Under the pieces are notes generated by a model that searched no databases, was not told the origin of the DNA, and was given only the letters and a program-made list of their open reading frames with translations. 59,849 nucleotides of DNA from a virus. Location: IMG/VR virus record IMGVR_UViG_3300045988_094266; one strand, written 5' to 3'. The translations under genes were made by a program, and so were the position numbers. How positions within the stretch are numbered: the first letter of the stretch is position 1; each line of letters begins with the position of its first letter. Below are positions 561-59,849 of this stretch, piece after piece.

Positions 561-811
561 GTATTTCTGCAATACTATGAAAAAATTTCATGTATTTCTG
601 AGAATACTATGATTTCATCATATTGTGAAAAAGCTATGAAATTTTCATATATTTGTTGGAAAGCGATGAAATTAATTTCATAGTATTCTGATAATACTAT
701 GAAATTAATTGAAAAGGATTTTCATAGCTTTTTCACAATACCATGTCATAGTATTCTGACAATACCATGAAAGTAAATAAAAATCCATTTCATGGTATTC
801 TGACAATACAA
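561..811. repeat. Array of at least 5 copies of a 27-bp palindromic motif TTCATRGTATTCTGAYAATACYATGAA (iteron- or operator-like)
   Basis: Read directly in the sequence. Copies lie near 561-582, 587-612, 677-703, 745-771 and 788-811, with half-sites between them. Confidence 0.7.
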
Positions 812-903
812 CAAATATAACATATATTAGATAACAGAGTTAAGATAACAGTTGCGACTTTTTCATGTATTTGTGAAAAAGCGATGAGTAGGAGGATTAA
901 AGC

Positions 904-1425: not shown

Positions 1426-1881
1426 TTACTTTAAATGCTTCAAAAACTCCATAATACTATCTTCATCAGACTTAGTATTACCCTTAACCTGAGGCACACT
1501 CTTTGCGAGAGCATCAGAAATAGAGTCAACAGCAATGTCAATTACTTCATCAAGACTCTTTGCATTGACTACTCGAGCGGAAGTCTTAGCAGTTACAGTC
1601 ATAGCCTGCATAAACTGCTTAATATCATTTGCTGTCCACTTAGGATTGCTCTTGCTATAAACCAGCGCAGCTACACGACCAACGTCATCCTCAGTGAGAG
1701 ACAAATCATCAACATTGCCATAAAAAGTAGACTCAATCTCATCCAGAAGAATATCTCGTTCATGGTCTGCGGCGTTAGCCTCGGAGATTCTATTCATAGC
1801 ATCAGTAAATGCCTTTGCAATCTCCTCCTGAGTAGAACCATTCTGCATTGCATCACGAATCATAATCTCATAACTATTCAT
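1426..1881 (-). CDS. Hypothetical protein
   Basis: 151-codon ORF in standard code, followed by a terminator. Confidence 0.6.
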   Translation of the reverse strand: MNSYEIMIRDAMQNGSTQEEIAKAFTDAMNRISEANAADHERDILLDEIESTFYGNVDDLSLTEDDVGRVAALVYSKSNPKWTANDIKQFMQAMTVTAKTSARVVNAKSLDEVIDIAVDSISDALAKSVPQVKGNTKSDEDSIMEFLKHLK

Positions 1882-2126
1882 AATAAGTTCTTTTAGTTAG
1901 AAAAAGCGTTATGATGCTTCTTAAACTAAAATCCTCCTTTTCTTTATCTTATGTATATATTATATTATATTTTTTATATATTGTCGAACCGATCGGGTCT
2001 AGATAAAAAGATCGCTTTAACGGAATCCCGCGGAAAAGATTTTTCCTTTTCAAATAGTTAGCAACATCTTTACTATTGTTTGCTGTATCTTTAATGGTTT
2101 TAATTCTGTGAATATCAAGAAATTTT

Positions 2127-2190
2127 GAGAAAAACGAGGCATTTTTTGCTTATTTTTAAGTAAATTTGTTAGAAAAACGCGCATTTTTGC
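2127..2190. repeat. Two direct copies of GAAAAACG(A/C)G(G/C)CATTTTTGC
   Basis: Read directly. They lie in an AT-rich intergenic region that also holds a TTGTTAT/ATAACAA inverted repeat. Confidence 0.4.
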
Positions 2191-2661
2191 AAGATTTTAG
2201 AGGTTTTTTGTTATATTTTGCGATAACAAGAGGTAAAAGATCGCGGGCCGATCGGTTTATCTAGCTAAAATCTCTATTTTTGAGCTATTTTTATCATAAA
2301 ATCGTGTTAAACCGATCGGTTTCGCGAAAGAAATCTCTGGTCGTATTTGTTTTTCATAGCTATATCTTTGCTATTGCTAGTTGTATTTTAGAAAGTTTTG
2401 GTACTGTGAATACTTGACAATTTTAAGATTTTTATTATAAAAAATTGGACGAGAGAGCCAATATTGCTGGACCGATCGGAACTAGATAAAGAAAGAAGTA
2501 AAGTAGGGCCGATCGGTGTTTGAAAGATGGCGTTATGAATTTTGGGAAAATTGCTATGAAGTTGCGTTATGGCCAAGTTGCTATGAAAATTTTGCGCTAT
2601 GGTCCGATCGGGGAAATTCGGGCCGAGTCGCCCGCGACCGGCCCGTCGAGTTTAGAAAATA

Positions 2662-2698
2662 TAAAATAAAAAGAGAGGCCAAAGCCTCTCTTTTCTTA
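2662..2698. terminator. Bidirectional intrinsic terminator
   Basis: Hairpin AGAGAGGC-caaa-GCCTCTCT flanked by an A-run and a T-run. Confidence 0.55.
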
Positions 2699-2701
2699 AT
2701 C

Positions 2702-2947
2702 CTAGTTTTCTAAATTGATTTCTCCTATACAGTTACACCGTATCGGAGATTCAAAAACAAATTCATCTCCATATCCAACGATAGTTATTTCTCCATACTT
2801 TTTACAATACTCGTCTATCTTTTCGATTAGACTATTCCAATCTTTCTCTTGCGCTTTTTGTTTTCTAAGTGCCACTTCTTTATAGGCGGTAGCACTCAAC
2901 CATTGCAACTCCTCATCATTCAGTTTGTTGAAATCAATATCAACCAT
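2702..2947 (-). CDS. Hypothetical protein
   Basis: 81-codon ORF with a terminator downstream. Confidence 0.5.
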   Translation of the reverse strand: MVDIDFNKLNDEELQWLSATAYKEVALRKQKAQEKDWNSLIEKIDEYCKKYGEITIVGYGDEFVFESPIRCNCIGEINLEN

Positions 2948-2964
2948 CTAAAAATCTCCTTTCT

Positions 2965-3417
2965 TTAATGAAAAATCTCAGCCGGAATTTCACTAAAAAC
3001 TTGCTTAAATTGCTCCATAGTCAGTTCTCTTGCCGCTCTCTCAACCCTTTCTTTTGCCCAGTCGCAAACCATTTCGCAGGAAATAAATTTAATTTCATAC
3101 CCAGTAATGGCGTAGATTTTAGGCGACCACTCAAATCTTTTTGTATCAGCCATATTTCCAGTTAAAATCATATATTCGCCGGTGGCTTGATTTTCTTCTG
3201 ACTGTTCAACCCAACATTGAACTATATTTTCAACATAGTTTTTTCCAGTTTTAACCGCTTCTTTTTCGGTTCGAGCATTGATTAAAAAGGTAGAAAGCAT
3301 AATATCATCACGAAATGATACCGTAAATTTATAAGGCTTCTTAGAGAAGATACCCTTGCGACCTTCACACCAAAAGGTAACTTGAAAATTAACACGAAAT
3401 TGTTTTAAGCTTTCCAT
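2965..3417 (-). CDS. Hypothetical protein
   Basis: 150-codon ORF. Confidence 0.6.
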   Translation of the reverse strand: MESLKQFRVNFQVTFWCEGRKGIFSKKPYKFTVSFRDDIMLSTFLINARTEKEAVKTGKNYVENIVQCWVEQSEENQATGEYMILTGNMADTKRFEWSPKIYAITGYEIKFISCEMVCDWAKERVERAARELTMEQFKQVFSEIPAEIFH

Positions 3418-3425
3418 TTCTTTTA

Positions 3426-3554
3426 TCTCCTGTAATAATCTTCAATATAAAATTTCATTTCTTTTTCTGTACTTTGTCCTAATACCGAATAAATAGTGGA
3501 AATGTCAAGGCAAGTTCTTTTAATTAAGAAACGAATGATAGAGTTTTTAAGTTT
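3426..3554 (-). CDS. Small hypothetical protein (about 42 aa)
   Basis: Strong RBS GGAAGGGAGG upstream of the ATG at 3554. The ORF is below the track cutoff. Confidence 0.3.
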
Positions 3555-3584
3555 ATTCATCATTTCTTTTACCTCCCTTCCATG

Positions 3585-3752
3585 GTTAAATGATACCACA
3601 TTTTCGGGAGAAAGTCAAGCTGTCAAGTTGCACAAATTTTCAATTCAAAATTGTTGAAAATGACAATAGAAGAAAAATTCGGACCGCGGCGCACGCAAGC
3701 GGTCCGCTCAAAATTTTGCATAAAAAAATCTCCCCATAAGGGGAGATTTTTC
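3585..3752 (-). promoter_or_regulatory. Intergenic cassette copy 1: terminator, GC hairpin, inverted repeat, promoter
   Basis: Read on the minus strand in this order. Terminator ATCTCCCC/GGGGAGAT. GC hairpin CGGACCGC..GCGGTCCG followed by AATTTTT. TTGCACAA..TTGTTGAA inverted repeat. Then -35 TTGACT, 17-nt spacer, -10 TATCAT. Confidence 0.5.
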
Positions 3753-3753
3753 T

Positions 3754-4114
3754 TTAGTTGAGAATTATTGGATATGCCTTGCGAATAACCACCGTAACCA
3801 TGGCCGGGGGAGTGTCGCACAAGAAACGGTCATTTCTGATAAAACGACCAATTCCCATATTCTGCCACAAAGTCCGGTTTACATCCTCGTATCGTAGGGT
3901 ATTATACTTGGAAAGTTTGATATGCCAATCATAGATAAAGGAACCATCTTCCGGCATGGTGTAATCTGGAGCCCGCTTATAATTTCTCGTATGTTCTGCG
4001 GCTCTGCGCTCAAGATCATTTGTCGTGCCAATCTTGAGAATATAGCGCCCCTTTTTGTCGATATAATGTCCGACATATAGAAACTCTTTTCCCCTTGTCT
4101 GTAAACTAACTATA
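3754..4114 (-). CDS. GIY-YIG nuclease-like ORF lacking a canonical start codon
   Basis: The stop-to-stop frame encodes YVGHYIDKKGRYILKIGTTNDLERRAAEHTRNY, a GIY-YIG motif. The only ATG in this frame is far internal. An in-frame ATA follows an AAAGAGG RBS. Confidence 0.45.
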
Positions 4115-4130
4115 ACTTACCTCTTTTCTG

Positions 4131-4158
4131 GTAGGGCCGGGGTAGGCCGACCCTACCA
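4131..4158 (-). terminator. GC-rich hairpin between genes (terminator-like)
   Basis: Stem GGTAGGG ... CCCTACC. Confidence 0.35.
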
Positions 4159-4160
4159 CG

Positions 4161-4478
4161 TTATTTCTTCGGTTTACGCTTTTGCACAAGCGTCAACTCG
4201 AAACTATCCCCACCAATAGAAAACGCAATCTGTCTTTCCTTGTTAGTAATAGACAAGTCAGCGATAGAGAATTGACTGTTTTTTTCCAAAAACTCTGCCA
4301 ATTCCGCAATTATACCGCCTTTCGTGGCGTTTGGCTTGCGTTGCCGTGTAGTGAACTTATATGCGGTTGGCTGTTTGCGCGTTCCAGCATGGGCAAACTT
4401 TTGAGCGATTTTCGCCTTTTCTGGCGGTAAATCGTATTCAGTCTTTTTATCAGCCTCTACCGCTTTATCATAGGCCAA
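4161..4478 (-). CDS. Hypothetical basic protein
   Basis: 105-codon ORF with a TTG start and a GGAGG RBS. Confidence 0.5.
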   Translation of the reverse strand: MAYDKAVEADKKTEYDLPPEKAKIAQKFAHAGTRKQPTAYKFTTRQRKPNATKGGIIAELAEFLEKNSQFSIADLSITNKERQIAFSIGGDSFELTLVQKRKPKK

Positions 4479-4587
4479 TAAATCTGCCTCCTCTTCCGGC
4501 GTTAATTGCAGGGCTTTATACCTTGCAATCCGTTCAGCGTCACTAATACGACTGGATATAATATCACCCCCATATTATAAGTTAGGG

Positions 4588-4612
4588 CGGGGATTTTCAC
4601 CCCGCCCTATAC
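4588..4612 (-). terminator. Hairpin GGGCGGGG/CCCCGCCC downstream of gene 4617..5027
   Basis: The stem is stable but the U-tract is weak. Confidence 0.4.
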
Positions 4613-4616
4613 GGGG

Positions 4617-5027
4617 TTACGCCATCTTAAAAAGGGACTTGCCCTTCTTTTCCGTGCAGACCACTCGACCATCGAGTTTCAACTGCCGCACAAGGGCGGC
4701 GACCTTCTGGTTAGAATAGGCCGTCAGATCAGGAATAGCCTTAAAAATTTCCGTGCAGGTCACGCCATCGGTATCGGCATCCAGATCAGCCAGATACTCC
4801 ATAATCTGCTCCTTAAAATTCTCGTTCTCCTGCTGGGTGGAAGTCAGCTTCTTGTCACCGCTAGAGCTATTCTTCTTACGCAGAAGCTCCAGCTCATGGT
4901 CAATGACAGTAATAGCCACCTCGATGGTAGTGCCATACTTTACCTCGCCGTCAGTCAAGAGGGCCTTAATGTCTTCAAAACGCTGGGCCTTAGTAATGCG
5001 GATTTTCTTCTCGTCCATAATATACAT
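4617..5027 (-). CDS. Hypothetical protein, possibly a winged-helix regulator
   Basis: 136-codon ORF driven by three tandem promoters. The C-terminal segment resembles a winged helix, but this is only a weak resemblance. Confidence 0.55.
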   Translation of the reverse strand: MYIMDEKKIRITKAQRFEDIKALLTDGEVKYGTTIEVAITVIDHELELLRKKNSSSGDKKLTSTQQENENFKEQIMEYLADLDADTDGVTCTEIFKAIPDLTAYSNQKVAALVRQLKLDGRVVCTEKKGKSLFKMA

Positions 5028-5045
5028 CCTTTCTGGTTTTTAGGA

Positions 5046-5300
5046 CTGTCCTTGTCCTTTGATTATATTGTACCACACTATTTGGTACTTGTCAAGAGGT
5101 TTTTCAAACTTTTTTCAAGAACTTTTGCCCTTTACTTGTTTGCCCTCTCAACCTCCCTTATAGTGTAACACACTTTGGAAAGTTTGTCAAGCCCTTTTTA
5201 TTTAATTTTCAAGGTACATTGCCTTGTTTTCTGTACTTATTATAGCACATCTTCAAAGGCTTGTCAAGAGGTTTTTGAAAGATTTTTGAGAAATTCGCTG
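5046..5300 (-). promoter_or_regulatory. Three tandem sigma70-like promoters on the minus strand
   Basis: On the minus strand: TTGACA-17-TATAAT, TTGACA-17-TACACT and TTGACA-17-TACAAT, each preceded by an A-tract. Confidence 0.5.
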
Positions 5301-5379
5301 TCACTGTCTGCCGTTCGTCTCTCTCACTTTCTGAATGTATTTTACCACAAGCAAAAGCAGATTGCAAGCGTCGAATTGC

Positions 5380-5555
5380 ACAAAAAATCGGAATTTTGGG
5401 AGAGAGTTTTTGTGCAAAATTCTGCACAAAAACGGGACGAAATTTTTGTGCAACATTACCATTGAAAAATTCGGCCCGCGTCAGCCATCCGCGGGCCGTC
5501 GACCTTTTAGATATAAAAAAAAATAAGAGGGCTGTAAAGCCCTCTTAAATATCAA
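5380..5555 (-). promoter_or_regulatory. Intergenic cassette copy 2 with a duplicated inverted repeat
   Basis: Terminator AGAGGGCtgtaaaGCCCTCT. GC hairpin CGGCCCGCG..CGCGGGCCG. Two TTGCACAA..TTGTGCAA inverted repeats. Confidence 0.5.
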
Positions 5556-5730
5556 TCATATAACTATAAACCATATCCCAAAGCGGCATATCATCCAGAA
5601 GGATATTTACAGTCAAAAGTCCGGTTTCTGTCGGCCCATCAACAAACCATCCCAGCCGCTGCATAAGGTGAATAACCTCATAGACATAATCGGGGTCAAG
5701 ATGGTTAGTGGTAAACTGTCTTGAAAACAT
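5545..5730 (-). CDS. Hypothetical small protein
   Basis: 61-codon ORF between a terminator and an upstream gene. Confidence 0.4.
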   Translation of the reverse strand: MFSRQFTTNHLDPDYVYEVIHLMQRLGWFVDGPTETGLLTVNILLDDMPLWDMVYSYMIDI

Positions 5731-5757
5731 TTCTTTTCCTTTCTATCGGGCGGGGCT

Positions 5758-6549
5758 TTAAGCCCCTACCCGAATTGTCGGATTATTTTTCAAACTTGCG
5801 GAAAGTTGACGCTGAAAATCTGTCATAGGCGGAAACTCTCTTTTATTCTCATACAGGGCCTTTCTCATGGGCTTATGCTGACGCATACAATACCACATGA
5901 TTTCCGCCTCAATCAGAACATCCTCAAGCCCCGTATGACTTTCTTCAAAATCGGTATTGCCAGAGATAAACCGCCACACGATTTCCGCAGTCTTGCGGGG
6001 GACACCATTAGCCTGGACATATCCGTTTTCCTGACAGAATTTCTTATAAGTGGGCATATTGCAGATAACATCCTGTGTCATCTTCATAATATCCCAAATC
6101 TCCACGCTGTCAAACGGGAACCAATAACGCCACTTGGAGTAGGTCACATAACGCTGTGTAACTCTCAAGGCATTATCGTCAAATCTGGCATTATAAGCCG
6201 CAACTTCCTTAATGCCGTATCGCTCAATGGTATTGAGCATAGCTTGGCGGATTTCATAAGTGGTAGCCATTTTACGAGTGCCGGCCCGCAGTTCCTCAAT
6301 ATAGCGGGGAATTTTCCAATTATAATAAGCAGTCCGCATGAGATCCCGCTCATCGTTGAAAATGTCCCTATTTACAAAACTGGCAGTTTCATAAATATTG
6401 CCCTTGGTATCCACTACCGCCCATCCGCAATCATAGACAAGAACGCAACTCATATCCATGCGGGCTTTGCCGTTTTCGTCAGTTTCAGTCAGTGTGTTAG
6501 CAGTTTCAGTATCAACCACCAAAACATAGTGTCTACGCTTATCAATCAT
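5758..6549 (-). CDS. DEDDh-type 3'-5' exonuclease (DnaQ/RNase T-like)
   Basis: Motifs VLVVDTETAN (Exo I) and HTGLEDVLIEAEI (Exo III). A consensus promoter TTGACA-17-TATAAT and an AGGAAG RBS lie upstream. Confidence 0.6.
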   Translation of the reverse strand: MIDKRRHYVLVVDTETANTLTETDENGKARMDMSCVLVYDCGWAVVDTKGNIYETASFVNRDIFNDERDLMRTAYYNWKIPRYIEELRAGTRKMATTYEIRQAMLNTIERYGIKEVAAYNARFDDNALRVTQRYVTYSKWRYWFPFDSVEIWDIMKMTQDVICNMPTYKKFCQENGYVQANGVPRKTAEIVWRFISGNTDFEESHTGLEDVLIEAEIMWYCMRQHKPMRKALYENKREFPPMTDFQRQLSASLKNNPTIRVGA

Positions 6550-6574
6550 AATCTTTGACTTCCTTTCCTCTTGT

Positions 6575-6948
6575 TGAGTTTATTATAGCACATATCATGC
6601 TTGATGTCAAGAGGAAAAGGAAATTTTTATTGCGATTTACTGCAAGCTACTGGGCATTAGAACGGCCTATTCTAACGGCGTTCACTCGACTTACGACACA
6701 ATATAAATTTACTTCCTTTACTTTCTAAGAGTTCGCGACCTCTTGATTTCTTGGCCTTCCCCTCTTGACAAATATATAATACCATACTTTCGGGATAATT
6801 ACAAGATGGCAAATTGCACAAAATTTGCAAGCCAAAATTGTGCAACATCGACAAAAACAAAAACTCGGCTCGCCGCGTGCGCCAGCGAGCCGCCCAAACG
6901 ATATTAAAGAGTAAAAATAAGAGGGCCGAAGCCCTCTTAATATCCAAG
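6575..6948 (-). promoter_or_regulatory. Intergenic cassette copy 3
   Basis: Terminator AGAGGGCcgaaGCCCTCT. GC hairpin CGGCTCGC..GCGAGCCG followed by a T-tract. Inverted repeat TTGCACAA-N16-TTGTGCAA. Promoters TTGTAA-17-TATTAT and TTGACA-17-TATAAT. Confidence 0.55.
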
Positions 6949-7125
6949 ATATTCTTTATTGATAATCTCGTCAAGCCAATAGCTCAAATCTTCAAGCGAA
7001 ATATCGTCATCAATTTCATTGTCGGCCATAACCTGATCAATTTGACCAATGAGAATGGACGCATTTTTCAATACTTGTCGCTCTTCCTCGCTGAGGATAA
7101 GCCTATTAACCTTTCTAATCTTCAT
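6937..7125 (-). CDS. Hypothetical small acidic protein
   Basis: 62-codon ORF with an AGGAAG RBS. Confidence 0.45.
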   Translation of the reverse strand: MKIRKVNRLILSEEERQVLKNASILIGQIDQVMADNEIDDDISLEDLSYWLDEIINKEYLGY

Positions 7126-7165
7126 TTACAAAACTTCCTTTCTTATTTTAAGATTGACTGGTGGA

Positions 7166-7630
7166 TTACTCTACCAGTCGCCATAAGGCCGTAGGTAAAT
7201 CTTCATGTGGCTCGATTGTTTCCCCTAAATGCCAGCCATCCCGCACACTTTTATTATCATCAATCAAAATGAAATTGCTAATTCCCGGCTCAAAGTGTTT
7301 CCGCACACAATTTGCTTTTGTTGTGCCATATTCCACAAGGTGGACTTTATGTGCGGGGAAGTTGTATTTTGCAAGCCAAGTGCGCTTTGCGTCACGAACA
7401 GCAGTTTTATATGAGTTAGAACTGTCTTTTGCAAGCCAACTGATAACCCGAATTTCCCAGCCCTGCTCAATGAGTTTATTAAGAACGGTATTCAATTCTT
7501 CTATATCGCAAAGAGGTTTGGCGACTGTATATGGATAGGGATTTTCATTCATTAAATCTTTTAACCAATCATCCACGCCGTACAGGTCAACGATTGTTCC
7601 ATCCATATCAAAGCAGAGCATCTTTTTCAT
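7166..7630 (-). CDS. HAD-superfamily hydrolase, possibly a 5'(3')-deoxyribonucleotidase
   Basis: N-terminal CFDMDGTIVD matches HAD motif I (DxDGT). Confidence 0.55.
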   Translation of the reverse strand: MKKMLCFDMDGTIVDLYGVDDWLKDLMNENPYPYTVAKPLCDIEELNTVLNKLIEQGWEIRVISWLAKDSSNSYKTAVRDAKRTWLAKYNFPAHKVHLVEYGTTKANCVRKHFEPGISNFILIDDNKSVRDGWHLGETIEPHEDLPTALWRLVE

Positions 7631-7644
7631 TTTGATTTACTTCC

Positions 7645-7840
7645 TTTCTTTAGGTTGATTAAAGTATATCAGATTTCGGGATAGAAAACAAGAGGCAAAC
7701 TGCACAAAATTTCGGCTGGAAAATTGTGCAACTTCTACAAAAGAGAAAATTCGGCGCGCCACGCACGTTAGCGCGCCGCCGAGAAGCCTATTCAAAAAAT
7801 GGGATAAAAAAGAGGGCCGAAGCCCTCTTTTAACTTTCAC
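7645..7840 (-). promoter_or_regulatory. Intergenic cassette copy 4
   Basis: Terminator AGAGGGCcgaaGCCCTCT. GC hairpin CGGCGCGCC..GCGCGCCG. Inverted repeat CTGCACAA..TTGTGCAA. Promoter TTGTTT-17-TATACT. Confidence 0.5.
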
Positions 7841-8291
7841 ATATATTTGCAAGAAATCTTGCAGAAAGTTTAACCATGTCATGGACAGATTCTTCGTTAT
7901 TGCTATTTTTATAGCAAATAAAACCAAGCTGGTCGCCATTCACAAGAATTGGTGTAATAAACATACTTTCCCATTTTGTCGCCGAACTGCGAATATCAAT
8001 CCAGTCATCGGGAACTCTTGTAATTCCAAAGGAACGCGGCCCGCATAAAATTCCATCATTGTCAAAAATAGCCGCGGCGATTCCGTTAGATGAAAGGGCA
8101 TTTTGCATTTGTTTAGCGTAAGAGGAAAATTCTCCCATTATAGAATATTTCTTAAAAACTACGCCGCCATCTTCTTCAAGAAAAATCTCTAATGGGTCGC
8201 CTTCTCTAATATGAAGGTTTCTACGGATTTCCTTTGGAATTACTATCCGGCCCAAATCATCAATACGGCGCACAATTCCAGTAGCTTTCAT
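7830..8291 (-). CDS. AbrB/SpoVT-family transcriptional regulator
   Basis: N-terminal MKATGIVRRIDDLGRIVIPKEIRRNLHIREGDPLEIF matches the AbrB swapped-hairpin DNA-binding domain. The roughly 100-aa C-terminal domain suggests a SpoVT-like protein. Confidence 0.7.
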   Translation of the reverse strand: MKATGIVRRIDDLGRIVIPKEIRRNLHIREGDPLEIFLEEDGGVVFKKYSIMGEFSSYAKQMQNALSSNGIAAAIFDNDGILCGPRSFGITRVPDDWIDIRSSATKWESMFITPILVNGDQLGFICYKNSNNEESVHDMVKLSARFLANICES

Positions 8292-8295
8292 TTTT

Positions 8296-8327
8296 ATCTG
8301 CGGGAGTGCAAGATTTATAGTCTTGCA
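8296..8327. other. Strong hairpin GGGAGTGCAAGA/TCTTGCACTCCC next to the start of the AbrB/SpoVT gene
   Basis: A 12-bp perfect stem. There is no clear U-tract on the minus strand. Confidence 0.35.
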
Positions 8328-8343
8328 CTCCCTTCCTCCCTTC

Positions 8344-32429: not shown

Positions 32430-35400
32430 GTGGCTAATAATAGAAGATTAAATTATTAGATTGGGTTTGATGTTGATACTGCTGAACTTTACAGAGCAGT
32501 AAACGAGGCAGTTCAATCTTTAAATAAAATCAGTGCCGGTTCTAAAGTTACAGCAGAATTGCGACAAGCTTCTTAGTCTGCGCTAGAGTTATCTACTTAT
32601 ATGCATTAGGCATTTAATCAAGGGACTGGAAAGTTAGATTTAGTAGCTTTTGAAAATAGTTTAAAATCTAGCGGAAGAACTCTTAAAGATTATGCCAACT
32701 CGTTAATTTCGATTGGTACCGAGGGGCAAAAGGCTTTTTTAAATGTAGCAACAGCGATTCAAAAAGCGGAGCTTCCAGCATTGCGCACTGGCAAAATATT
32801 TGATTAGTTATGGATTACTATGAAAAATACTATGAGATGGCAGATTACCTCCACCGCGTTAAATAGTTTTGTGGGAACCATAGAATCAGCTTATGGGTAT
32901 GCACAAGATCTAAATGAATCATTAACAAATATTCGTATAGTTACTGAAAATTCTGCGGAAGACATGGCTAAATTTGCTCAATAGGCAAATGAAGCAGCAA
33001 AAGCATTAAGTACAACTACTGTTGAATATAGTGATGCTGCTTTGATTTATTATCAATAGGGTCTTACTGAATAGGAAGTTTTAGATAGAACTGAAACTAC
33101 TATTAAAATGGCTAATGCCGCAGGAATTAGTGCATAGACCGCTTCGGATCAGCTGACCGCAGTTTGGAACAACTTCTATGATGGAAGTAAGAGTCTTGAA
33201 TATTATGCTGATGTAATGGTGCGTTTAGGCGCCGATACAGCGTCTAGCTCTGATGAAATTTCAGAAGGTATCCAACAATTTGCCTCTGTAGCAGATACAG
33301 TTGGATTAAGTTACGAATATGCTGCTTCTGCTCTTGCTACTGTCACTGCTACGACACGTGAGTCTGCTAATACAGTAGGTACAGCATTTAGAACTTTATT
33401 TGCTCGTATCCAAGGCTTAAATCTTGGAGAAACTCTCGATGATGGCACTACATTAAATAAATATTCTAAAGCTCTTGAAAAAGTGGGTATTGATATTTTT
33501 GATGTTAATGGTGAGATTAAAACTATGGATACCTTACTTGATGAAATGGGTTCAAAATGGGAGACCTTATCTAATGACTAGTAGATTGCTTTGGCTTAGA
33601 CCGTAGCCGGAGTTCGCCAATATACTCGTCTTATTGCACTTATGGATAATTGGGATTTCTTTTAGGAGAATTTAGCTAGTGCTTATGGAGCAGAGGGATC
33701 TCTTTAGGAACAGGCAGATATTTATGCTGAATCTTGGGAAGCTGCTAGAGATAGAGTAAAAGCATCTGCTGAGGATATTTATGATAGTGTCATAAATCCA
33801 GATTTGTATATAAATGCAGATAATGTCTTAACTCCATTTTTATCTGGTATTGCAGACGCCATTGATGCAATGGGAGGGTTAAATGGTATTTTAGCTAGTA
33901 CCGCTTTGTTGATTAATGGGATTTATGGAAATAAGATTGCTGAATCAATGCGTTCTATGGTGGCTAATATAAAAGTTCTATCTGGATTAGAGTAGAATAG
34001 AGCGAGAAATTTGTAGGCATCAGCGGCTGAGATAGCAACTCAATTAGGCTTAACAAACTCTATGTCTTAGGCTGAAAAAAATCTTTTTAATATTATGGTT
34101 GACTAGGCTAATATATAGGGCCAAATAAATAGTAACTACGACGCGATGGATGCTAATGGTCGTAGATTAATTTAGACAGAACAGTTAAAATTAAGTATTT
34201 TGCAAGATTAGTTAAAGACATATTCTTAGTAGTAGATTTAGTCTAGGGAAAATGTATTAAATCTTAGAGATACTATTTATTTTAATATAGGAATAAAAGA
34301 TGGCTGGCAAGAAGAAGTTAAAGCAGAAATAAATAAATTTAATAGTAGAAATAAAAGTAATCAAATTTAGTTAAATATAAGAGCTAATAGTAACCTTGAT
34401 AAAATTTATAATGATGTTACTACTTAGTTAACTAGTTTAATTTAGCAATCTACAAAACTTGATACAGTGTATCAAGAATTTAAAAAACTTGAAAGCGCTG
34501 GAACTGCGACTAGAGACAGCCTTCGTAATTTATTATCTAGTGTTACGGGCAAAGAACATAATTATGCTTAGATTGAATGGCTGACTTAGCAATTAGAGGG
34601 GTTAAAAAATTAGTCTCAAAATGCAAAATTGCAAATTCGTGAACTTGGGACTATTTTATAGACTATGGGAGCCGATCCAAGAGTAGTTACTTCTTATATT
34701 AATGAATTAACAAAATTGGAGTCTGTTACTGCAAGAACAACTGAACAAGAGGCTCGATATTAGGAATTGTTAGCGAAGTTCCCTAGTGTAATTACAAAAG
34801 CATTAATACCAACGAGAGATTGGGCTACAATATTGGTTTAGGTTGGAAGTTCTCTTTCTAGTTTAACTATGATTATGAATGCTTTTTAGAGCATTGGAAG
34901 AATTTTTTCTGATGAAGATATGACTTCAACTGAAAGAATTGTAGCTTTGTTTACTTCTCTTGGTATGTTACTACCCTCTATTATTTCTGTTTATAAAACT
35001 TTAAATATGTTAACTACTGCTCATGCTGTTGCAGCAGCGGCGGACGCCGCGGCAACAGCAGTAGAGGCTTTAGCGACAGAATAGCTTGCTATGGCGAAGC
35101 AGAAAGCCGCTATGGCTTCCGGCATCTTAACTGCTGCAATTATGGTAGCAATAATAGCGATTACTGCAATAACAAGTGCTATAAAAGCATAGCATGAAGC
35201 AACCTTGGCTGCTGCTTAGGCCTCTATTGATGCGGCAAATGCAAAAAAAGAAGAAGCACAAGCGAATAGAGAGTTAATTCAATCTACTCAAAATGCCTTA
35301 TCTACTTATCAAGAAACTGGGGATGGAAAAGAAGAGTTAGATGATTTAACTCGTTAGTTGGCTGAAGCGTATGATTTAGAAGGCAGTGCATTAGCTAGAC

Positions 35401-38400
35401 TAAGTGGATAGTATGAAGATTATAATAGTGTTTTAAAAGCTGCTCAAGAAGCTCAAAGAAGAGAACTTTAGGAAACTTTGTAGTCCCAAGAAGAAGCGTT
35501 ACGTGCGAATGAAACTCTCATTCTTGAAACCGCGAGAGAGGGCGTGGGCCACGTATATTTTGGTGGAAATTATGAGGGGTCTTTTACTGGTTTTAATGAT
35601 TTTTGGAATGGCACCGAAGAAGATACTGCATCTAATATTCTTCTCAATAATGTGGACGCTTTATATAGTAGTTGGAATGACAATGTAATTGGCGGAAGAA
35701 GAAACTTAGCTTTTTCTATAGACCCAAATAATACAGAAGAATTAATTAATTTTTATGATCAATTAAATAATGCTATTAATTTGATGAATAATAGCATGAC
35801 TGTTTCGGAAAGAGGAGCATCTGGACTTTACAATGCTGCTGTTGAGTGGCGAGATAAAATGGAAGAGGTTGTCACTCAATATAAAGAAACTAAAGAGAGT
35901 ATAAATGCTATTCGGGTATAGCTTGGAGAGTTTAATAATTAGACTATTACCGATGATCAAGTATCAAGTTTAGCGTAGTATAAAATTTGGGTTAACGAAG
36001 TTACAGAGGCGCTCACTTCTGCTGGATATGAAGGCGAAGAATTAAACGATATAATCAATGATTTAGTATCTACTTCTCTGAATCCTGATATTAGTGGCTT
36101 TAAAGATATTTATGACGCAATTTTAGAGGTTGAAGAATTAGTCAATGATGAAGAATTAAAAAGTAATCTTGAATCTATTTTTACAGATGAAAATTATGAT
36201 ACTTCTGTATTAAATTTATTAAATTGGGGTGCTTTAACATAGGAGACTTTTTAGGATGCCTATGACAGTGCTAAAAAATATACTGATGCTATTTCCGAAG
36301 TTGAAAACGCAACAGAATCTTTAACTACTGCACAATCTGCCTTAGAAACTCTTGGAGATAGAGATTTAGATCGAGAAGGATTAGAATCACTTTCTAAAAC
36401 TGTTGATTGGGGAAATCAAGAAAAAGGAATTATTGATTTTAATTAGTTCCTTGCTATGACTTTAGTTGAACAATAGAGTTATTTATAGAGGATTATAAAT
36501 GAGTCCTATTAGGCTGTCAATAATGGATTAATAGATTAGATTAGTGAAGCAAAAAAGAGAATAACTGAGCAATAGGATATTTTAAATCAATATAGCGATT
36601 CTGAATTAGAACGTGCAGAAAAAGTTGTTTATGCTTGGGAACAAGTTCGAGAAGCGTATAATGATTATCAAGGTAGCTTAAATGGCGGAGAAGAATTTAA
36701 TCTTGATAATTATACGATTGATTGGGATTTGTTAGGTGAAAATTTTGATTGGGAATCTTTTAAAACCGAAACTGCGGATAACGTAGCTAGTGCATTTGAG
36801 TATGGGACAAAAGAAGCTCAAGATAAAATTGATACTGTAACTTTAGCAGAGTAGCTAATTAGTAGTTTATAGGATGATATAGATTCTAGCACAGCTTAGT
36901 TACAAATAAATGCAGAATTAAATTTTTAGAATCAATTAGATTAGATTGAAAATTCCGTTGACGGAATTGTAAGTGTATTCGATGCTATTTCTGATGGAGT
37001 AAGCTAGACTACCAATGAAGCTGGAGAACAAGTTTGGAGTTTTAGTAGAGAAGCAGCTAAGGCTATTGAATCTATCTATCCAGGTTTTATAGCTAACGCG
37101 GAATTATTAAGGGATGGTACATTTGCTTTAACAGATGAGATGTATCAAGCATTTTATAATAGTTCTTAGGGGCAATTAGCTGTTGATGCTGATACCAAAT
37201 CTAATATGCTTCAAAATCTTATTTCTCTTTTAGAGGCTAAACGAGGAGAGGCTGAAGCTTCGCTTAAGATCGCTGATCAGCTAGCTTCTGGAGAATTAAC
37301 TATAAACGAATTATCAGATGAGCAGAAGAGAACTTTATTAGCGGGATATGTAAATGCTTAGAATCTTGCTAATGGAGAAATGTTAGATGATTAGGTCAAT
37401 AGTTTAACCGCACAAGATACAAATTAGTAGACTTTATGGACTAATGTTAGCGAGTATTCTGCTTAGGGCGCGCAGAACATGAGTACTAATGTATAGTTAA
37501 ATACTCAAAATGTTCTTGCTAATCTTGAAAAAATTAGAGATGCGGCATATGCTACTGGAATTCAAGTATCTCAAATAGGAACTGATAATGTTACTAAGCA
37601 AGATTTTGATACTTCTGCTGTTTCTTTTGATAGTTCGGCTGCAACAACAATAGATACGAGTAACGCTAATGATTTCTTAAATTCTTTAACTGCAAATTTA
37701 GATGTAGAACCTGTAACCGCAGACGATTTAAATATTTATGGTGATGCTAGTGAGGCACTTGAAGCTAAGCAATCTTAGGCAGTTGGAGAAGCGCTAAGGG
37801 CCATTTATTAGGGGAGTATTGATGGGTATAATGAGGCTATAGCAGCAGCAAAAATAGCCTAGAGCAAATTATTAGATTCTATTGATGGAGCTATAGAAGG
37901 GGTAAAGGGAAGTTCAAGTGGCGGAGATAATGAAGGCACTAAGTATGACGAAGAAGATGAAAAGACTCTAAAGGATATTGAAGATAGATACCATGAAATA
38001 ACTCGCGAAATTGAGAATTAGAACGATTTATTAGATGATATTGGAAATAATATAGATAGAGCCTATGGCGCCAATAAACTTCAAGCATACTAGAGAGAAC
38101 TTCAAGAATTAGAGAAATAGCAAGCTAATTATAACAAACTACTTAATGAAGCTGAAACTTATCTTACAAAAGACTAGGCAGATCTTCAAGGGTTGTTTAA
38201 TAATTCTCTTATTTTTGATGAAAATGGAGAAATTGAAGGTTATCAAAGTGTTCTTCAATCTATAATAGATGATTATAATAATAATTTCTTAGCGGATTAT
38301 AATGCTTTTTTAGTTGCCTTTAGTAATCTTACTAAAGATGAATAGGAAGCTAGATAGGCAGAATATGATAGTTGGCAGTTACAAAAGGAAGCTGCTGATG

Positions 38401-41157
38401 AATTATTCCAAGCTCGTTAGGATGCTCTCGCCCAATATGAAGAAACTCTTGACAAAATTCAAGAAGTAAAGGACGAATAGGAAGAACTAGAGAGAAGCAT
38501 CGCAGACAATAGATTGAGTTAGATTGAATATAAACTTGAAGTTGTAATAGAAATAAAAGATGCTAAAGATGCTGTTCGTGAATTAACTAAAAAGATTGCA
38601 GAATCATTTGGTGATGAATTAACTCATGGTATTGAAGTCGCTCGTATTGATGAAAATAGTGTGAACGAAAATATAAAAATAATCAAGGATTATGAAGAAA
38701 CGCTTAAAAGTTATCAAGAAGAATTGGCTAACGCAACGGATGCGACTGATATTGATGGAATTATAAGTAAAATATCTGATTTATAGGGTAAAATAATTTC
38801 TACCGCAGAAGCTCTACTTGATTGGGTAGAGGGTCTTGAAGAAATGTTGCCAGATGCATTAGACGCTGCATCTGAAAGATTCGCTGAATTTACTGATCAA
38901 CTTGATCATAATGAATCAGTTCTTGGACTTATAAAAGAATTGTATACACTTTAGGGGGTTACATATAAAACCGAAGAAGGATTTGAATAGCTCCAAAAAG
39001 TAAGCGAAGAGACAATGAAAGCTCAAATAGCAAATGCGCAATTAAATAAACAGTGGTATGATGGTATTAAACAGGAGCTTTTAGAAGCCTAGAGCGCGTT
39101 AGATGCACTAGGCGGCGATGAAACAGATCCGGCATATGATGGTTTAAAAGCCAATCGAGATGCACTACTAGAAGAATATAATGAAGCCCAATAGGCGATG
39201 TTAAGTTCCGCGCAAGCCGCTATGGAAACTGCACAAGAAATGTATACTTAGGCTATTGAAAGAGCCGTATATGAATTTGGATAGGCGGTTTCTGGTGGAG
39301 TTGGCTTAGATTTGCTACAAGACAAGTTCGATCATTATATTGAGCAAGAAGATAGATATTTAGATAAAGTAAATGAGGCATATGAAGTATCTTCTTGGTA
39401 TAATAAACTTCAATAGGATATTGATAAAGCTACTAATTCTAAAATGAAAGATTAGTTGAAATAGTTACAAGAAGAAATTGATATTCGTAGAGAGAATAAT
39501 ACTTTATCTGAATATGATCTAGAAATTCTTGAAGCCAAGTATAATGTTCTTTAGGCCCAGATGGCTCTTGAAGATGCTCAAAACGCGAAAAATCAGCTTA
39601 GATTAGTGAGAGATAGCCAAGGTAACTGGAATTATCAATACACCGCAGATGCGAGCTAGATAGCGGATGCGGAATAGAATTTACTTGATGCAGAGAATGA
39701 ATGGTATAACATAGCTAAACAATAGGTTGAAGATGTTACTGGAGAAATTATTTCTACTTGGCAGGAATGTCAGGATAAAATAAAAGAGATTTATTCTGAT
39801 ATGACCTTGACTGACGAGGAAAGATCTGCCCGCGCGCAAGAAATCTATTCTTATTATACGCAGAAGGTTAAGGATCTAGAGAACGAAAAACAGATTGCTA
39901 TTTAGGATATGACCGAAGCCGGCAATAAAGCCTTAATTGATATGGCTATTGTTGCGGGAGACGAGGTAAGTGACCTAACTGGAATTACAAGTCAAGAAAT
40001 TCAGGATATTATAGCTAATTCTGGCTCTAGTATTATTGATTTGTTATTATCTGATAATGAATAGATTCAAGATATAGTTGGAAGTAATACAAAACTTATT
40101 GATTTATTTGATAATGTTTTCGCAAAAGATCTTGCTAATATGACTTCTAATGCTGGAAATTTTGAAGATTTTCTATCTAAGGCCATGGACGAAGCAAGTG
40201 GAGCGATGGAAGATTATCAAACTACTGTCTCTGGAGTTGCAGATTAGACTGGAACAAGTCTTGATGATTTAGAAGGTTATCTTGATGATGTTACAACTTC
40301 TACAGAGTTATGTTCTGATGCAGGATCGGAAGCTGTCACTTAGATGTTAGAATAGATAAGCACTATTCAAGATTTAAGTCAAGAATATTTAGACATGGCT
40401 AAATCAGTTAGAGAATATATAAGAGCTCTTGAGGAGGCTGCTAGAGCAGCTGGAAATACAATAGAAAGTGCTGGAGGAATAGATAAAGATGATTTACCTC
40501 CAGCTAATTCAGATCAATCTTCTGATAATAACTCTAGCAATAGTAATAGCGGATCTTCCAGCGGAGGAGCTGGAAGTGGCAATGGAATCCCAGAAGTAGG
40601 AGACGAAGTCATTTATACTGGTGGAACTTATTATCATGATTCTTATGGCACAGATCCAGCAGGTAGACGTGGGCCCGGCAAGAAAGTTAAAATAACTAAT
40701 ATAGCCAAAGGCAGACCATATCCGATTCATGTATAGTCTAATAATTCTGCATATGGTTGGTTAAAAGAAAGTCAAATAAGCGGATTTGATACAGGAGGTT
40801 ATACTGGAGAATTTGATAATGCTAAATTAGCTTTCTTACACGAAAAAGAGTTAGTTTTAAATCAAGAAGATACGAAAAATATTCTCGCGGCGGTTTCTGC
40901 TATAAGAGCTTTTGAACCTAGTTTTATAGCTTCTATAGAGAAAGCGCTTGATGGAAATGCACTATCTATTTCTAATCTTATGGCATCAAGATTAGGATCT
41001 AATACTTAGATTACTCCAGCAGACAACACAGTTGAACCGTATATAAATATTGAGCGAGTTGAGTTCCCAAATGCGACATCTTCTGATGAAATTCAAGATG
41101 CTATTCGTAGTTTAGCTGATGATGCTACTCAATGGGCAAATAGAAGAAAGGGATAAT
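32430..41157 (+). CDS. Tail tape measure protein, about 2909 codons (TAG-containing)
   Basis: GTG start with an AAAGGAGG RBS. Track ORFs 33216, 33804, 35544 and 40395 all lie in one frame. The segment ADVMVRLGADTASSSDEISEGIQQFASVADTVGLSYEYAASALATVTATTRESANTVGTAFRTLFARIQGL resembles the core of TP901-type tape measure proteins. It ends at a TAA. Confidence 0.6.
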
Positions 41158-54890: not shown

Positions 54891-55530
54891 ATTTTAACTC
54901 AATAGCTTTTAATTTATCTATCGAATCAGCTTCGAATATCTAAGTTTTATATTCTTGCATTAAATGATATTTAGGATATACCGCATTTGAAATAGCTAAA
55001 CTTAGAGCGGATAATTGCTCTAAACTCCATGGCACACATTCTTCGTGTCGAGCGTGCCACTCAAGCGTAGGATTTTCTACTTCAGCCGCGAGAGCGACTT
55101 GATATTGATTGAGATTTAAGCTAATCTCAGACTGGTCCTCCTACGTAATTCCATATTCTTTTCCATCAACCCAAGTTAGTGGGTGGGCAGCAAGATACTC
55201 TGCGAATAATTTCTTGTTTTCCTCTTGTTTGTCATACTTTGCCTAATCTAAATCAGAAGTGAATGTTCCATCTTCTTGATTATATATTGAATAATTAGGA
55301 GTAACATCTGATGGAATTGTTTCTATCTCTAATACTTTTACAGCATTAGATTGATTTAATACATCGGCTTTAATTAGAGTATAATGTGTATCTCCATTTG
55401 AGCCGATAACCCCAGTTCCCTCTTCTTCCTCGCAGGCAACGACAATACCATTTGAGGATTGCAGTTTAATGTAACGTGCTTCTGAAAGAATATCAACTAC
55501 TACATTCTCTCTATTTAATAGAATATACAT
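54868..55530 (-). CDS. Hypothetical protein (3 in-frame TAGs)
   Basis: The 95-codon track ORF extends in frame to a TAA at 54868. Its ATG overlaps the TAA of the RT extension. Confidence 0.35.
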
Positions 55531-55706
55531 TACTTTATTTCAACTCCTTTAAATAATGAACGAAAATAATTGTCCATATCTTGAATTATATAAAAACAAG
55601 TTCCTTTAGAAATATGTGCCCTCCAACCTTGATAGGATTTCTAAATTTCATCTGTTGAAATTTTACCCTCTAGCCATAGCGCTTGCATTTTCTTCAACTT
55701 TCTGCG

Positions 55707-56747
55707 CTAATGAGCCACTTTCTTTTTAAAAGGAATTTGTATTATATGATTAGTGTCTGTGAGATAAAAGTTCCACTTTAAGTATTTTAATGGGGCGTGA
55801 CGTTTGCCGTCCGCGTGAATAGGAGAGATTCTAGTAATAGTAGTCTTTTTCTTATTCATTTTTAATCCTTGCTTATTTAAGCGAACTTCTATTCTCTTTT
55901 CACATTCGGCTAAGTATTGACTGTCATTGTGGAATAAATATAAATCATCCATATAACGACCATAATACTTTATATGTAACTCTTCTTTGATGAAGTGGTC
56001 AATTCCGTTCAATGCTAGCAATGCGAATAATTGTGATGTTTGACTTCCTAATCCAAGACTTTTATTATCATATTCATAGTATTTGCGGCCAGGCTTGAAA
56101 TTAGTGGTACTAATTCTCGTGTATTTGTGCCGTTTACTAATATAATAATCTTTTCCTGGTATGGGAGAGGAATCTTTTGTTAGCTTAAAAGAAAATGTAT
56201 CTATTAAATAACAGCATAGTTGATAAATTCTTTTATCTTTTATCAAACGTTTAGCCGCTTTCTTTAAAGATTTATGGTCAATAGAATCAAAATATTTTTG
56301 AATATCAATTCTTAACCCATAAAAATCTTTTCCTAATCCATATTCTCTATGAGCTTGTTGAAGATGTTTCTTTACTCTTTTTAAAGCAAAGTCTATTCCT
56401 TTTCCTCTTAAAGTAGCACAATTATCGTAGATAAATCTAGGAGTTAATTCTGGTAATAAAACTTGTTCACATAACGCATTTTGTACCAGTCTGTCGTTGA
56501 TATGACACGCTCTTATATCTCTTGGTTTGCCTCGTTCGATTATCGAAAAACAACTAAACACAAGCTATTCGTATTCACACGCTCGCAGATCAGCTTCTGT
56601 TTTTAAAATTGTTTCTATCCTATTCTCTTCAAAATTAATTGTACTATCTTTCCATCGAACGTTTCGGCATACCTTATAAGACGCATCATACATAGTGTCA
56701 AAACTACAAAAACGCTCGAAAGTAGTATCTTGATTTATTTCAGACAT
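55707..56747 (-). CDS. Diversity-generating retroelement (DGR) reverse transcriptase
   Basis: Motifs DRLVQNAL, LGSQTSQ (the DGR-type motif 4, [ILV]GxxxSQ) and the YMDD catalytic box. One in-frame TAG at 56565-67 joins track ORFs 56565..56747 and 55707..56561. The ORF ends at a TAG, so it may read on to the TAA at 55530. Confidence 0.7.
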
Positions 56748-57056
56748 ACTTTCTCCTTATCATGTAGCTATAGTGGTAGCTACTCGAGCTCCACGTCTAC
56801 AGTCTTACTTTATCCACTTTTTCAGTGAAATGGTTAAGTTCTCCTTAGATGAAAAGGCAGATCTACCTATAGTATATTATTCGATAGTTGTAGAGCAAAG
56901 CTCTTTAATGGTCTCTCAATCTCTTCCCCACATAGTGAGTGCAATCCAGAGTAAACCTTAATTAGATGGATAATAATATACTCCGGGGTACTATTTAGGC
57001 GTTGCTCGTTTGCGCTGCTCCGCAGCTTAACTCGCAACATGATAGCTCCATCTAAT

Positions 57057-57156
57057 CCGGCGCGAGCCCGTTGCTGTTGTTGTAGTTGTTGTTGTTCGCA
57101 GATCCATCGTTGTTGACATTGCAAACGTTGTTCGAGTTGTTGTAGTTACGGGACCG
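57057..57156 (-). repeat. DGR template repeat (TR)
   Basis: 100-bp copy of the variable repeat. All 20 mismatches sit at TR adenines on the coding (minus) strand. The frame is AAC-rich (NYNNSNNVCNVNNDGSANNNNYNNSNG). Confidence 0.8.
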
Positions 57157-57186
57157 AAAGATACAGAACTTAACCGCAGAAAAATA

Positions 57187-57681
57187 TTATCGACCTCTCC
57201 TATGGGTTTTAGGAGCCGAATATCTATGCTCGACTATAAGTTTATCTCTATTTTTTCTATCTTGGATTGATTCTTTTACTTTCTTAGTCAATCTAGCTAG
57301 ATGTTCAAAAGATCTTCTTTTCTTTTTGCTGTTCTGAGCATACTAATAAATACATAGGTCGATTTGTCGAAATATACTATCACAATATTCAATCGCTCTA
57401 TTGTGATATTCATTTCTTTTTGTAAGGGTTTCTTTATCTTTTAAGTTTATCCTACACGCCTCATAACAGCAAGCGTGTATACCCTTTCCGCATTTAATTA
57501 TATCGTACCCGAACGCTTGAAGAGGTTGACCCTCTCCAAGCAGTCCAGGTTTGCAGATTTGTTTTCCATCCTTATCAAATTCTCTAGGACGAGTTAAGAC
57601 TAAAATGTAGCCAACCAATTCACGGGCTTTATAAAGACAGTCTTGTTTTGATAGGTGTCTATCCTTTACTTTTACAGACAT
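57187..57681 (-). CDS. Avd-like DGR accessory protein candidate (call rests on position only)
   Basis: It lies between the variable and template repeats, as avd does in Bordetella-type DGRs. The track ORF ends at a TAG and continues to a TAA at 57187. There is no recognisable Avd motif. Confidence 0.3.
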
Positions 57682-57763
57682 TTAAAATTTCCCTCACTTG
57701 AATATATAATTTTTTTATTGGACAATTTAACCTTAACTGTCCCGAATTGTTATTTTGCTGTAT

Positions 57764-59514: not shown

Positions 59515-59687
59515 ATTGTTTACCTCCTTCTATCTAGCTATTGCTATAAACAAATCTAAATTACTAGATAGAAGGTCGAGGATGGAAGCGATCTTCGCTC
59601 CAGTCTTTTAGAAAGTCATTAACAATTTCCGAGAAAAAGTACACTTTTTAACAGGAAAAATACTTCTTCTGTCTAGATAACAAAAAA

Positions 59688-59840: not shown

Positions 59841-59849
59841 TGGAATGTA
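59841..59849 (+). CDS. Start of a plus-strand gene, cut off by the window edge
   Basis: AAAGGAG RBS 8 nt upstream of an ATG. Confidence 0.25.

Follow-up and report, generated by a model that had tools for sequence, protein, structure and literature searches.

A putative initiator-binding array of nine palindromic sites beside a single-domain winged-helix gene in a phage predicted to recode TAG

The viral record IMGVR_UViG_3300045988_094266 of IMG/VR (59,849 nucleotides, analysed over its full length and called the window below) carries nine 29-bp sites of two-fold symmetry at positions 554-889, immediately after a small winged-helix gene (169-558, + strand). It is fairly probable that these sites form an initiator-binding array of the origin type in this gut phage, laid out on the plan shared by lambda O, SPP1 gp38 and the RepA_N initiators. 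Elements in which iterons adjoin an initiator gene are textbook biology, and the protein family to which this gene belongs is uncharacterised; the present case is set apart by the single domain of its putative initiator, by nine 29-bp sites that are of two subtypes and lie immediately outside the reading frame, and by the possible recruitment of partners by the tail of the protein. To our knowledge, replication has not been studied in the TAG-recoded gut phages (the phAss-1-like group and its relatives), whose hosts are uncultured or unknown. With the protein and the sites in hand, one could locate origins, make shuttle or interference constructs, type the replicon modules of metagenomes, and ask when in infection a recoded initiator is made.

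The palindromic sites and the winged-helix gene

A sequence-only reading of this DNA had proposed a palindromic array at 561-811, directly downstream of an initiator-like gene, as a candidate replication origin. The array is real and does follow the gene directly, its first site overlapping the stop codon (556-558), but it extends over 554-889 and its repeat unit is 29 bp. Inspection of positions 1-1500 together with a repeat finder yielded nine sites of the form TTTCAT-N17-ATGAAA, which start at 554, 586, 613, 643, 676, 720, 744, 788 and 861, with centre-to-centre distances of 32, 27, 30, 33, 44, 24, 44 and 73 bp. The shorter pattern TCAT-N17-ATGA has six exact matches in the 59,849-bp window, all within 588-863, whereas shuffled sequence gives about 2.2 matches scattered across the window and at most two within 350 bp. 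Two exact occurrences of the 25-nt core put forward in the sequence-only reading are at 678-702 and 746-770, and a third copy, at 790-814, has three mismatches; shuffles give none.

The sites fall into two subtypes. Five (554, 586, 676, 744 and 788) are near-symmetric around a GTATTCTGAYAATAC centre, and four are composite, with an asymmetric ATTTGTGAAAAAGC centre (613, 643 and 861, plus 720 in inverse orientation) and halves that pair at the outer 6-7 nt only. The GAAAAAG centre is restricted in the window to the four composite sites, the principal sites having a CTGAY centre, and the half-sites are of three kinds: TTTCATRGTATT, TTTCATNTATTT and TTTCATMGCTTT. Site 1 (554-582, TTTAATCGTATTTCTGCAATACTATGAAA) has a degenerate left half and is missing in the related loci L001 and L002; it is followed by site 2 (586-614, TTTCATGTATTTCTGAGAATACTATGATT) and by the composite sites 3 (613-641, TTTCATCATATTGTGAAAAAGCTATGAAA) and 4 (643-671, TTTCATATATTTGTTGGAAAGCGATGAAA). 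Site 5 (676-704) is a perfect palindrome, TTTCATAGTATT CTGAT AATACTATGAAA, with 12-bp arms and a 5-bp spacer (678-702), and its complementarity reaches 18-nt arms (670-687 and 693-710). Site 6 (720-748), composite and in the opposite orientation, has 92% complementarity to site 3 and shares 5 nt with site 7 (744-772, TGTCATAGTATTCTGACAATACCATGAAA). Site 8 (788-816, TTTCATGGTATTCTGACAATACAACAAAT) has a degenerate right half, and its centre coincides with the -35-like hexamer of a promoter-like element; the composite site 9 (861-889, TTTCATGTATTTGTGAAAAAGCGATGAGT) lies between that element and the ribosome-binding site of the next open reading frame (ORF). When the window is compared with L001/L002 (protein identity 81%), conservation of the array matches or exceeds that of the gene: invariant positions make up most of 744-890, and the alignment collapses past about 895. 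A search of Rfam with the array returned no credible family.

The gene that the sequence-only reading placed at 169-558 is present, but it is a single ORF, with a 129-aa product, only when the in-frame TAG at 196-198 is read as glutamine. This TAG is codon 10 and aligns with a glutamine that is invariant in close homologues (N9 and Q10 are nearly invariant in 96 members of the family), and a second TAG in the L001 gene corresponds to CAA in the window; because of these correspondences, TAG is assigned to glutamine in this phage. The predicted protein starts with a basic arm and continues with an extended winged helix (approximately residues 5-110), after which come a short linker, acidic in character, and the C-terminal tail EKFSF; the winged helix is single, and the chain terminates 20 residues past it. 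The comparison with RepA_N and DnaD made in the sequence-only reading stands at the level of fold, with a DNA-binding domain of the DnaD-NTD-like fold seen in RepA_N-type proteins, but does not extend to Pfam membership, as none of the 96 family members matches the RepA_N model (PF06970). A tblastn search of GenBank phages with the window protein gave no match, and a sequence search of the PDB returned a generic cullin winged helix only. A structure model built from four close homologues was unusable (pLDDT 51), and the 96-sequence alignment was used instead.

An exhaustive profile search recovered 683 cluster representatives (109 at E <= 1e-10), which share a conserved N-terminal domain of about 110 aa followed by a low-complexity linker and a variable C-terminus. 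Among the 96 members, 59 match phrog_270 ('replication initiation protein'), 35 match phrog_186 ('DnaD-like helicase loader'), 33 match phrog_428 and 30 match phrog_678 ('replication initiation O-like'), and only two match PHROGs of regulators; in Pfam, 50 match HTH_36 and two match DnaD_N, and the scan of the family gave no match to Rep3_N. Direct alignment of the family profile by hhalign was not significant with lambda O (E 0.17) and weak with TP901-1 Rep (E 0.019 over 49 columns). For this reason the link to initiators was made through PHROGs common to the family members and to these two proteins: lambda O matches phrog_678 and phrog_345, as do family members, and the experimentally defined TP901-1 Rep matches phrog_186 and phrog_428. 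Membership of the window protein in the O-like group is thus indicated only indirectly.

The C-termini of the family are distinctive. Of 148 representatives of the family, 50 have phenylalanine as the last residue, against a background of 3.9% (P about 6e-33); 27 of these 50 tails are of the form F-x-F, like the EKFSF of the window, and nine are acidic ...DLPF tails that resemble the DDDLPF tail of Firmicute SsbA (PMC5531588). It is conceivable, though doubtful, that the whole family (at least 683 clusters from phages, integrative elements and small plasmids of gut Firmicutes) is a distinct minimal class of origin-binding proteins in which the C-terminal aromatic tail (Φ-x-F-COOH, or the SSB-type ...DLPF) is the sole effector. 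Tails arrayed on double-stranded iterons might then mimic an SSB-coated fork and recruit clients of SSB (PriA or the DnaD/DnaB/DnaI pathway), activating the origin without a helicase-loader domain. The terminal phenylalanine suggests a testable way for an initiator of one domain to engage host machinery. In several family members (P0007, P0008 and P0009) the linker contains short peptide repeats, which in P0007 (locus L003) are encoded by the DNA repeats themselves.

Linkage of gene and repeats across the family

For homologues of decreasing similarity to the window protein, the densest 200-bp cluster of direct or inverted 8-mers was located in each locus; a search with a 12-sequence alignment added 3, 10 and 2 loci from three collections. 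In 11 of 16 loci the densest repeat window starts at +275 to +430 nt relative to the domain start, which is where the coding sequence of the domain ends, and when related loci are collapsed the same is true of 7 of 12 independent lineages (P about 4e-7). The array of the window starts at +386 nt from the gene start. The arrangement of initiator followed by iterons, to which the sequence-only reading had appealed, recurs across the family with repeats peculiar to each lineage, and it matches that of lambda.

The repeats differ in sequence, length and symmetry. In L003 (48% identity), about nine 30-bp units of TTTCATAG...CTATGA begin inside the gene and continue past its stop codon, the in-gene copies encoding a peptide repeat of QNDPM type. 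Locus L011, of the P0154 group, has three 22-bp palindromes (GGTATATGAAAATTTCATATAG) from about 40 nt after the stop codon, L017 has the variant TATATGGTTTTTCCATATAG, and 22-bp semi-palindromic repeats that converge on an A/T tract are found in L011, L017, L023, L025, L028 and plasmid pRGF00006; L024 has three copies of TTTGAAAACAGGCTTTAAGCC, and L028 two of TTCGGTAAAAATTACCG. In L005 and L008, which are integrase-linked elements, three copies of GGATAACCCGKC lie inside the gene as direct repeats; these two distant homologues and a third, L013, adjoin recombinases. In the 143-kb human-gut contig L021, which has the gene at 94% identity, the array (3400-3493) consists of a perfect 27-bp tandem (TTTCATGGTATTCTGACAATACTATGA), within which the contig breaks off. 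The contigs of L003 and L004 likewise terminate in tandem repeats, located about 300 bp beyond their arrays; arrays of this kind break assemblies.

Plasmid pRGF00006 (L033, HG796773.1), a 5.2-kb circle, has three copies of GTGTAnnAAATTTTAATACAC after its winged-helix gene. That gene (450-920, - strand) is N-terminally truncated and contains four in-frame TAGs, and the plasmid also has a resolvase. The plasmid was considered as a case in which the winged-helix protein would be the sole initiator, a notion rejected on account of its own Rep_3 gene; the winged-helix copy looks like a captured fragment of a phage origin.

Because the repeats change in sequence with the protein while their place at the end of the DNA-binding module stays the same, they look like its cognate binding sites, and repeats inside the protein's own reading frame would be in keeping with a known habit of initiator genes. 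The rule that repeats start where the winged-helix coding sequence ends predicts cognate sites for several hundred uncharacterised proteins.

The closest parallel is with lambda O and ori-lambda, which also combine an N-terminal winged-helix origin-binding domain with dyad-symmetric iterons, an A+T-rich region on one side of the repeats and transcription through or next to the origin, the window having candidates for the last two; the lambda iterons are annotated 348-432 nt into gene O, so that they start at +348 where the window array starts at +386. However, lambda has four 18-bp iterons inside the O frame whereas the nine 29-bp sites of the window, of two subtypes, lie just outside the frame. 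The helicase loader P, product of a neighbouring gene, is bound by a C-terminal domain of O, whereas the window protein stops after its DNA-binding domain and has no adjacent loader gene. Nine initiator-binding repeats immediately downstream of the initiator gene, a layout like that proposed for the window, are found in P1, but those are 19-bp direct repeats bound by monomers of a Rep protein with two winged helices, incA serves copy control, and the firing origin is upstream of repA. The Rep_3 iteron plasmids likewise have 17-22-bp direct repeats bound by monomers of a WH1-WH2 protein, unlike the single winged helix and inverted-repeat sites seen here. The RepA_N plasmid initiators (RepA of pSK41/pTZ2162) and the RepA of the Vibrio cholerae PLE differ in the family's lack of Pfam RepA_N matches, in having a genus-specific C-terminal domain that is absent here, and in that the principal sites of the window are centred on CTGAY and not on a poly-A tract. 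Origin repeats within or at the initiator gene are also known from SPP1 gp38-oriL and TP901-1 Rep, those of SPP1 oriL being located in gene 38 itself, with an AT-rich unwinding element beside them (PMC6316719). TP901-1 Rep has phrog_186 and phrog_428 in common with the 35 and 33 family members noted above, and the likely host clade of the window phage is Firmicutes/Clostridia; yet the SPP1 and TP901-1 proteins are 250-270 aa long with a C-terminal domain, their repeats are direct, and genes for a loader and a helicase come after their own.

A possible mechanism and its alternatives

Three elements at and to the right of the array enter into the proposed mechanism. The promoter-like element at 800-828 (+) reads CTGACA-17-TATATT in the rightward direction, agrees with the consensus at 10 of 12 positions, and is kept as CTGACA-17-TATATA in L001/L002. 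It overlaps an AT-rich block (810-858, about 76% A+T) with two direct AGATAACAG motifs at 828-837 and 841-851, which is a candidate unwinding region; an AGATAA-type motif like AGATAACAG recurs after the repeats of L003, L011, L023 and L028. Further right is a non-coding purine-rich tract (1140-1290, + strand, 76-86% A+G) of variable length, unalignable with L001 and carrying an indel relative to L026; L003 is likewise purine-rich after its array. For low duplex stability, the 40-mer at 810 ranks in the 98th percentile of the window, and the least stable 40-mers near the array, at 1211-1280 within the purine tract, are in the 99th, with similar values elsewhere nearby.

With TAG decoded as glutamine, the gene would yield a 129-aa protein that is essentially a bare origin-binding domain. 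Dimers of this protein would occupy the nine dyad sites, whose spacing is 24-44 bp except for the 73 bp before site 9, and cooperative filling of the sites would build a higher-order complex, as in the lambda O-some. The complex may destabilise easily melted DNA in its neighbourhood, either the block at 810-858 or the purine-rich tract to the right or both, and melting would probably be helped by transcription that starts at the promoter-like element within site 8 and runs rightward through the purine tract. The acidic, flexible linker and the terminal aromatic tail (...EKFSF-COOH) may recruit a helicase-loading or primosome component. Because the two rightmost sites, 8 and 9, bracket the promoter-like element, the same protein would throttle transcription from it, and a regulatory role is likely for at least these two sites.

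A number of observations weigh against an origin. DNA binding, the dimer stoichiometry, melting, partner recruitment and origin firing are all steps that we infer. The link from the protein to initiators appears to run through family members and fold and is not direct: the window protein itself gave only a sub-threshold HTH_36 hit in Pfam and no match among the PHROGs, and it lacks a C-terminal effector domain. No helicase, loader, primase or other replisome gene was recognised nearby or in the window, which is part of a larger genome. The A+T content of the array and its flank (74-78%) is only modestly above the local background, and the genes on its right-hand side are oriented towards the array. 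An initiator made only when TAG is decoded would be odd for an early function. Five of the 16 related loci have no repeat cluster at the expected place, and in pRGF00006 the winged-helix module coexists with a canonical Rep_3 initiator. The sequence-only reading had named cumulative GC skew as a check; its minimum is at about 15.5 kb and its maximum at about 54 kb, respectively 15 kb and 6 kb from the array, and the small + strand unit is a positive blip in a negative region. Both extrema coincide with switches in gene strand, and because the skew follows gene strand and the window is a partial genome, this outcome is uninformative rather than refuting. The identification of the array as a candidate origin is favoured by the homology of the family and by the arrangement of gene and repeats, origin activity being what these suggest.

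The overlap of sites 8 and 9 with promoter-like elements would also suit a dimeric winged-helix repressor whose nine palindromes control the promoter-like element at 800-828 and its small gene and block upstream read-through, with no role in replication. A purely operator function is nevertheless unlikely: nine sites over 335 bp far exceed the need of one promoter, for seven of them there is no promoter-like element with a score of at least 10/12 at the site, and no further site occurs elsewhere in the 59.8 kb, other promoters included. Moreover, the repeats of L003, L005 and L008 lie within their own coding sequence, which is unusual for operators and usual for initiator genes, and initiator matches outnumber regulator matches 59:2 among the PHROGs of the family.

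A protein without an effector domain might also suggest that the array only titrates or handcuffs the initiator, like P1 incA, or is the remnant of an origin, with initiation elsewhere, for example in the region at 1.3-2.65 kb that is rich in the 8-bp palindrome CCGATCGG. This second conserved set of palindromes and a conserved non-coding region of about 1 kb are found to the right of the array in all close relatives, the truncated copy in pRGF00006 has repeats alongside its own Rep_3 gene, and the array of L021 has been homogenised to perfect 27-bp tandems. Control or decoy function of this kind is nonetheless quite improbable, as the linkage of gene and repeats holds family-wide, including in small elements with no second set of repeats seen, and as the array, like genuine origins, has an AT-rich block and a transcription unit next to it.

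Arrays of short repeats beside a gene for a small DNA-binding protein are also a hallmark of type II and type III partition loci (ParR/parC and TubR/tubC), in which the array consists of the protein's own binding repeats. The array could accordingly be a centromere for segregation or DNA organisation, and the winged-helix protein the centromere-binding adaptor of a phage that persists as a plasmid, a proposal to which the presence of a ribbon-helix-helix (RHH) gene in the same operon and the large genomes of the relatives (114-164 kb) lend some weight. It is very improbable all the same, since no NTPase domain of TubZ, ParM or ParA type was found among the operon neighbours and the protein has no link in fold or sequence to TubR or ParR. 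Action at the level of RNA, with the palindromes serving as hairpins for processing, termination or stability of a read-through transcript, would fit the lack of a terminator between gene and array and the 12-bp stems that perfect sites could form, but it is hardly credible when four of the nine sites are composite, the corresponding sites are direct repeats in L005 and L008 and part of the coding sequence in L003, and Rfam offers no match.

Operon, neighbouring elements and genome context

The winged-helix gene belongs to a + strand operon with the order RHH gene, DUF5659 gene, winged-helix gene, array, small ORF, purine tract, G+C-rich element and terminator, flanked by - strand genes at least in L001. 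The window begins within the second gene, of which the 3' part (3-194, + strand) contains three in-frame TAGs and overlaps the start of the winged-helix gene by 26 nt; its full-length orthologue in L001 matches Pfam DUF5659 with 28.9 bits, above the cut-off. A 5.4-kb contig, L020, is 100% identical from position 1 of the window and extends into the 5' end of the DUF5659 gene and the gene upstream. In L001 and L020 the operon is headed by an RHH gene of CopG/Arc type, which gives it a cop-rep-like layout. The window was considered as a complete circular genome, since 59820-59849 and 1-194 join in frame into an ATG-led DUF5659 ORF with a ribosome-binding site; this was ruled out because L020, L026, L019 and L022 continue upstream into different sequence, containing the true 5' end and the RHH gene. 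L020 has a further stretch resembling a template or variable repeat upstream of the operon.

To the right of the array, a 58-aa ORF (904-1080, + strand) with in-frame TAGs read as glutamine is preceded by a strong AGGAGG ribosome-binding site (890-895); it differs from L019 at two positions in its first 60 nt, both synonymous, and is replaced by an unrelated 49-aa ORF in L001/L002. The G+C-rich element (1290-1358, 69 nt) contains CCGATCGG-GTCTAGGT, a second CGATCG and a TCTAGGT/ACCTAG pairing. Over its 69 nt it has three differences from L001/L002, one of them a single-base indel, and both of its flanks are unalignable; the predicted fold of its DNA, taken by itself, is unremarkable (z = -1.1), and the element is possibly, though not necessarily, part of the same unit as the array. 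A bidirectional terminator hairpin (1379-1404) closes both the + strand unit and a convergent - strand gene (1426-1881). Neither the G+C-rich element nor the non-coding region at 1.9-4.3 kb has a credible match in Rfam.

The palindrome CCGATCGG occurs eight times in the window (0.17 expected), and seven of the copies are within 1294-2611, to the right of the array (1294, 1989, 2248, 2312, 2472, 2509 and 2604); the eighth is at 14048. Several copies are extended to CCGATCGG-N1-4-TCTAGRT, and the cluster occupies the same relative positions in L001, L002, L020, L022 and L026. These copies may serve a second factor as its binding sites. Three of the copies are in what looks like an unannotated small RNA gene (approximately 2414-2695, + strand), with a near-consensus promoter, a conserved body of about 220 nt and a terminator hairpin, but no Rfam family; the body also includes a 27-bp tandem with half-site-like CTATGAA motifs (2554 and 2581) and a G+C-rich 3' part, and in L001 and L022 a different hairpin replaces the terminator. 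Relative to L001, an insert of about 1 kb (2646-3674) with two - strand genes (2696-2947 and 2965-3417) splits a conserved, ORF-poor region of about 1 kb (window 2108-2645 and 3675-4160, corresponding to L001 6824-7790).

The use of TAG differs between the strands. Treating it as a sense codon raises the total of long ORFs in the window from 5,851 to 18,420 codons, about threefold. The + strand block at 16-54 kb (16030-54389) is dense in TAGs, with 98 in a single ORF of 2,908 codons (32430-41156, + strand) that probably encodes the tape measure protein, whereas the - strand ORFs at 1426-14928 have none while the winged-helix gene and its operon do contain them. A search of the window with ARAGORN found no tRNA gene, and hence none for a suppressor. 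Among the phages of GenBank, DNA similarity, and weak at that, was seen only with phAss-1 (OQ749652), which comes from the gut and recodes TAG; contigs with the gene at 81% identity are 114 and 164 kb long. The host clade is likely Firmicutes/Clostridia, an assignment that also draws on published work (PMC10607447).

Other features of the window are remote from the array. The portal gene and a presumed terminase gene are at 18-22 kb, and interpretation of the array as a packaging site was rejected. A diversity-generating retroelement at 55530-59553 (- strand) comprises a reverse transcriptase (55530-56747, RVT_1), an Avd-like ORF (57187-57681), a template repeat (57054-57156) and a variable repeat (57777-57879) that is 80% identical to the template repeat and is located at the 3' end of the target gene (57763-59553). 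The early region, on the - strand, encodes a DEDD-like exonuclease (5758-6549, phrog_20187), an AbrB/SpoVT-type regulator (7830-8291, MazE_antitoxin and SpoVT_C) and a FolD-like methylenetetrahydrofolate dehydrogenase/cyclohydrolase (14835-15659).

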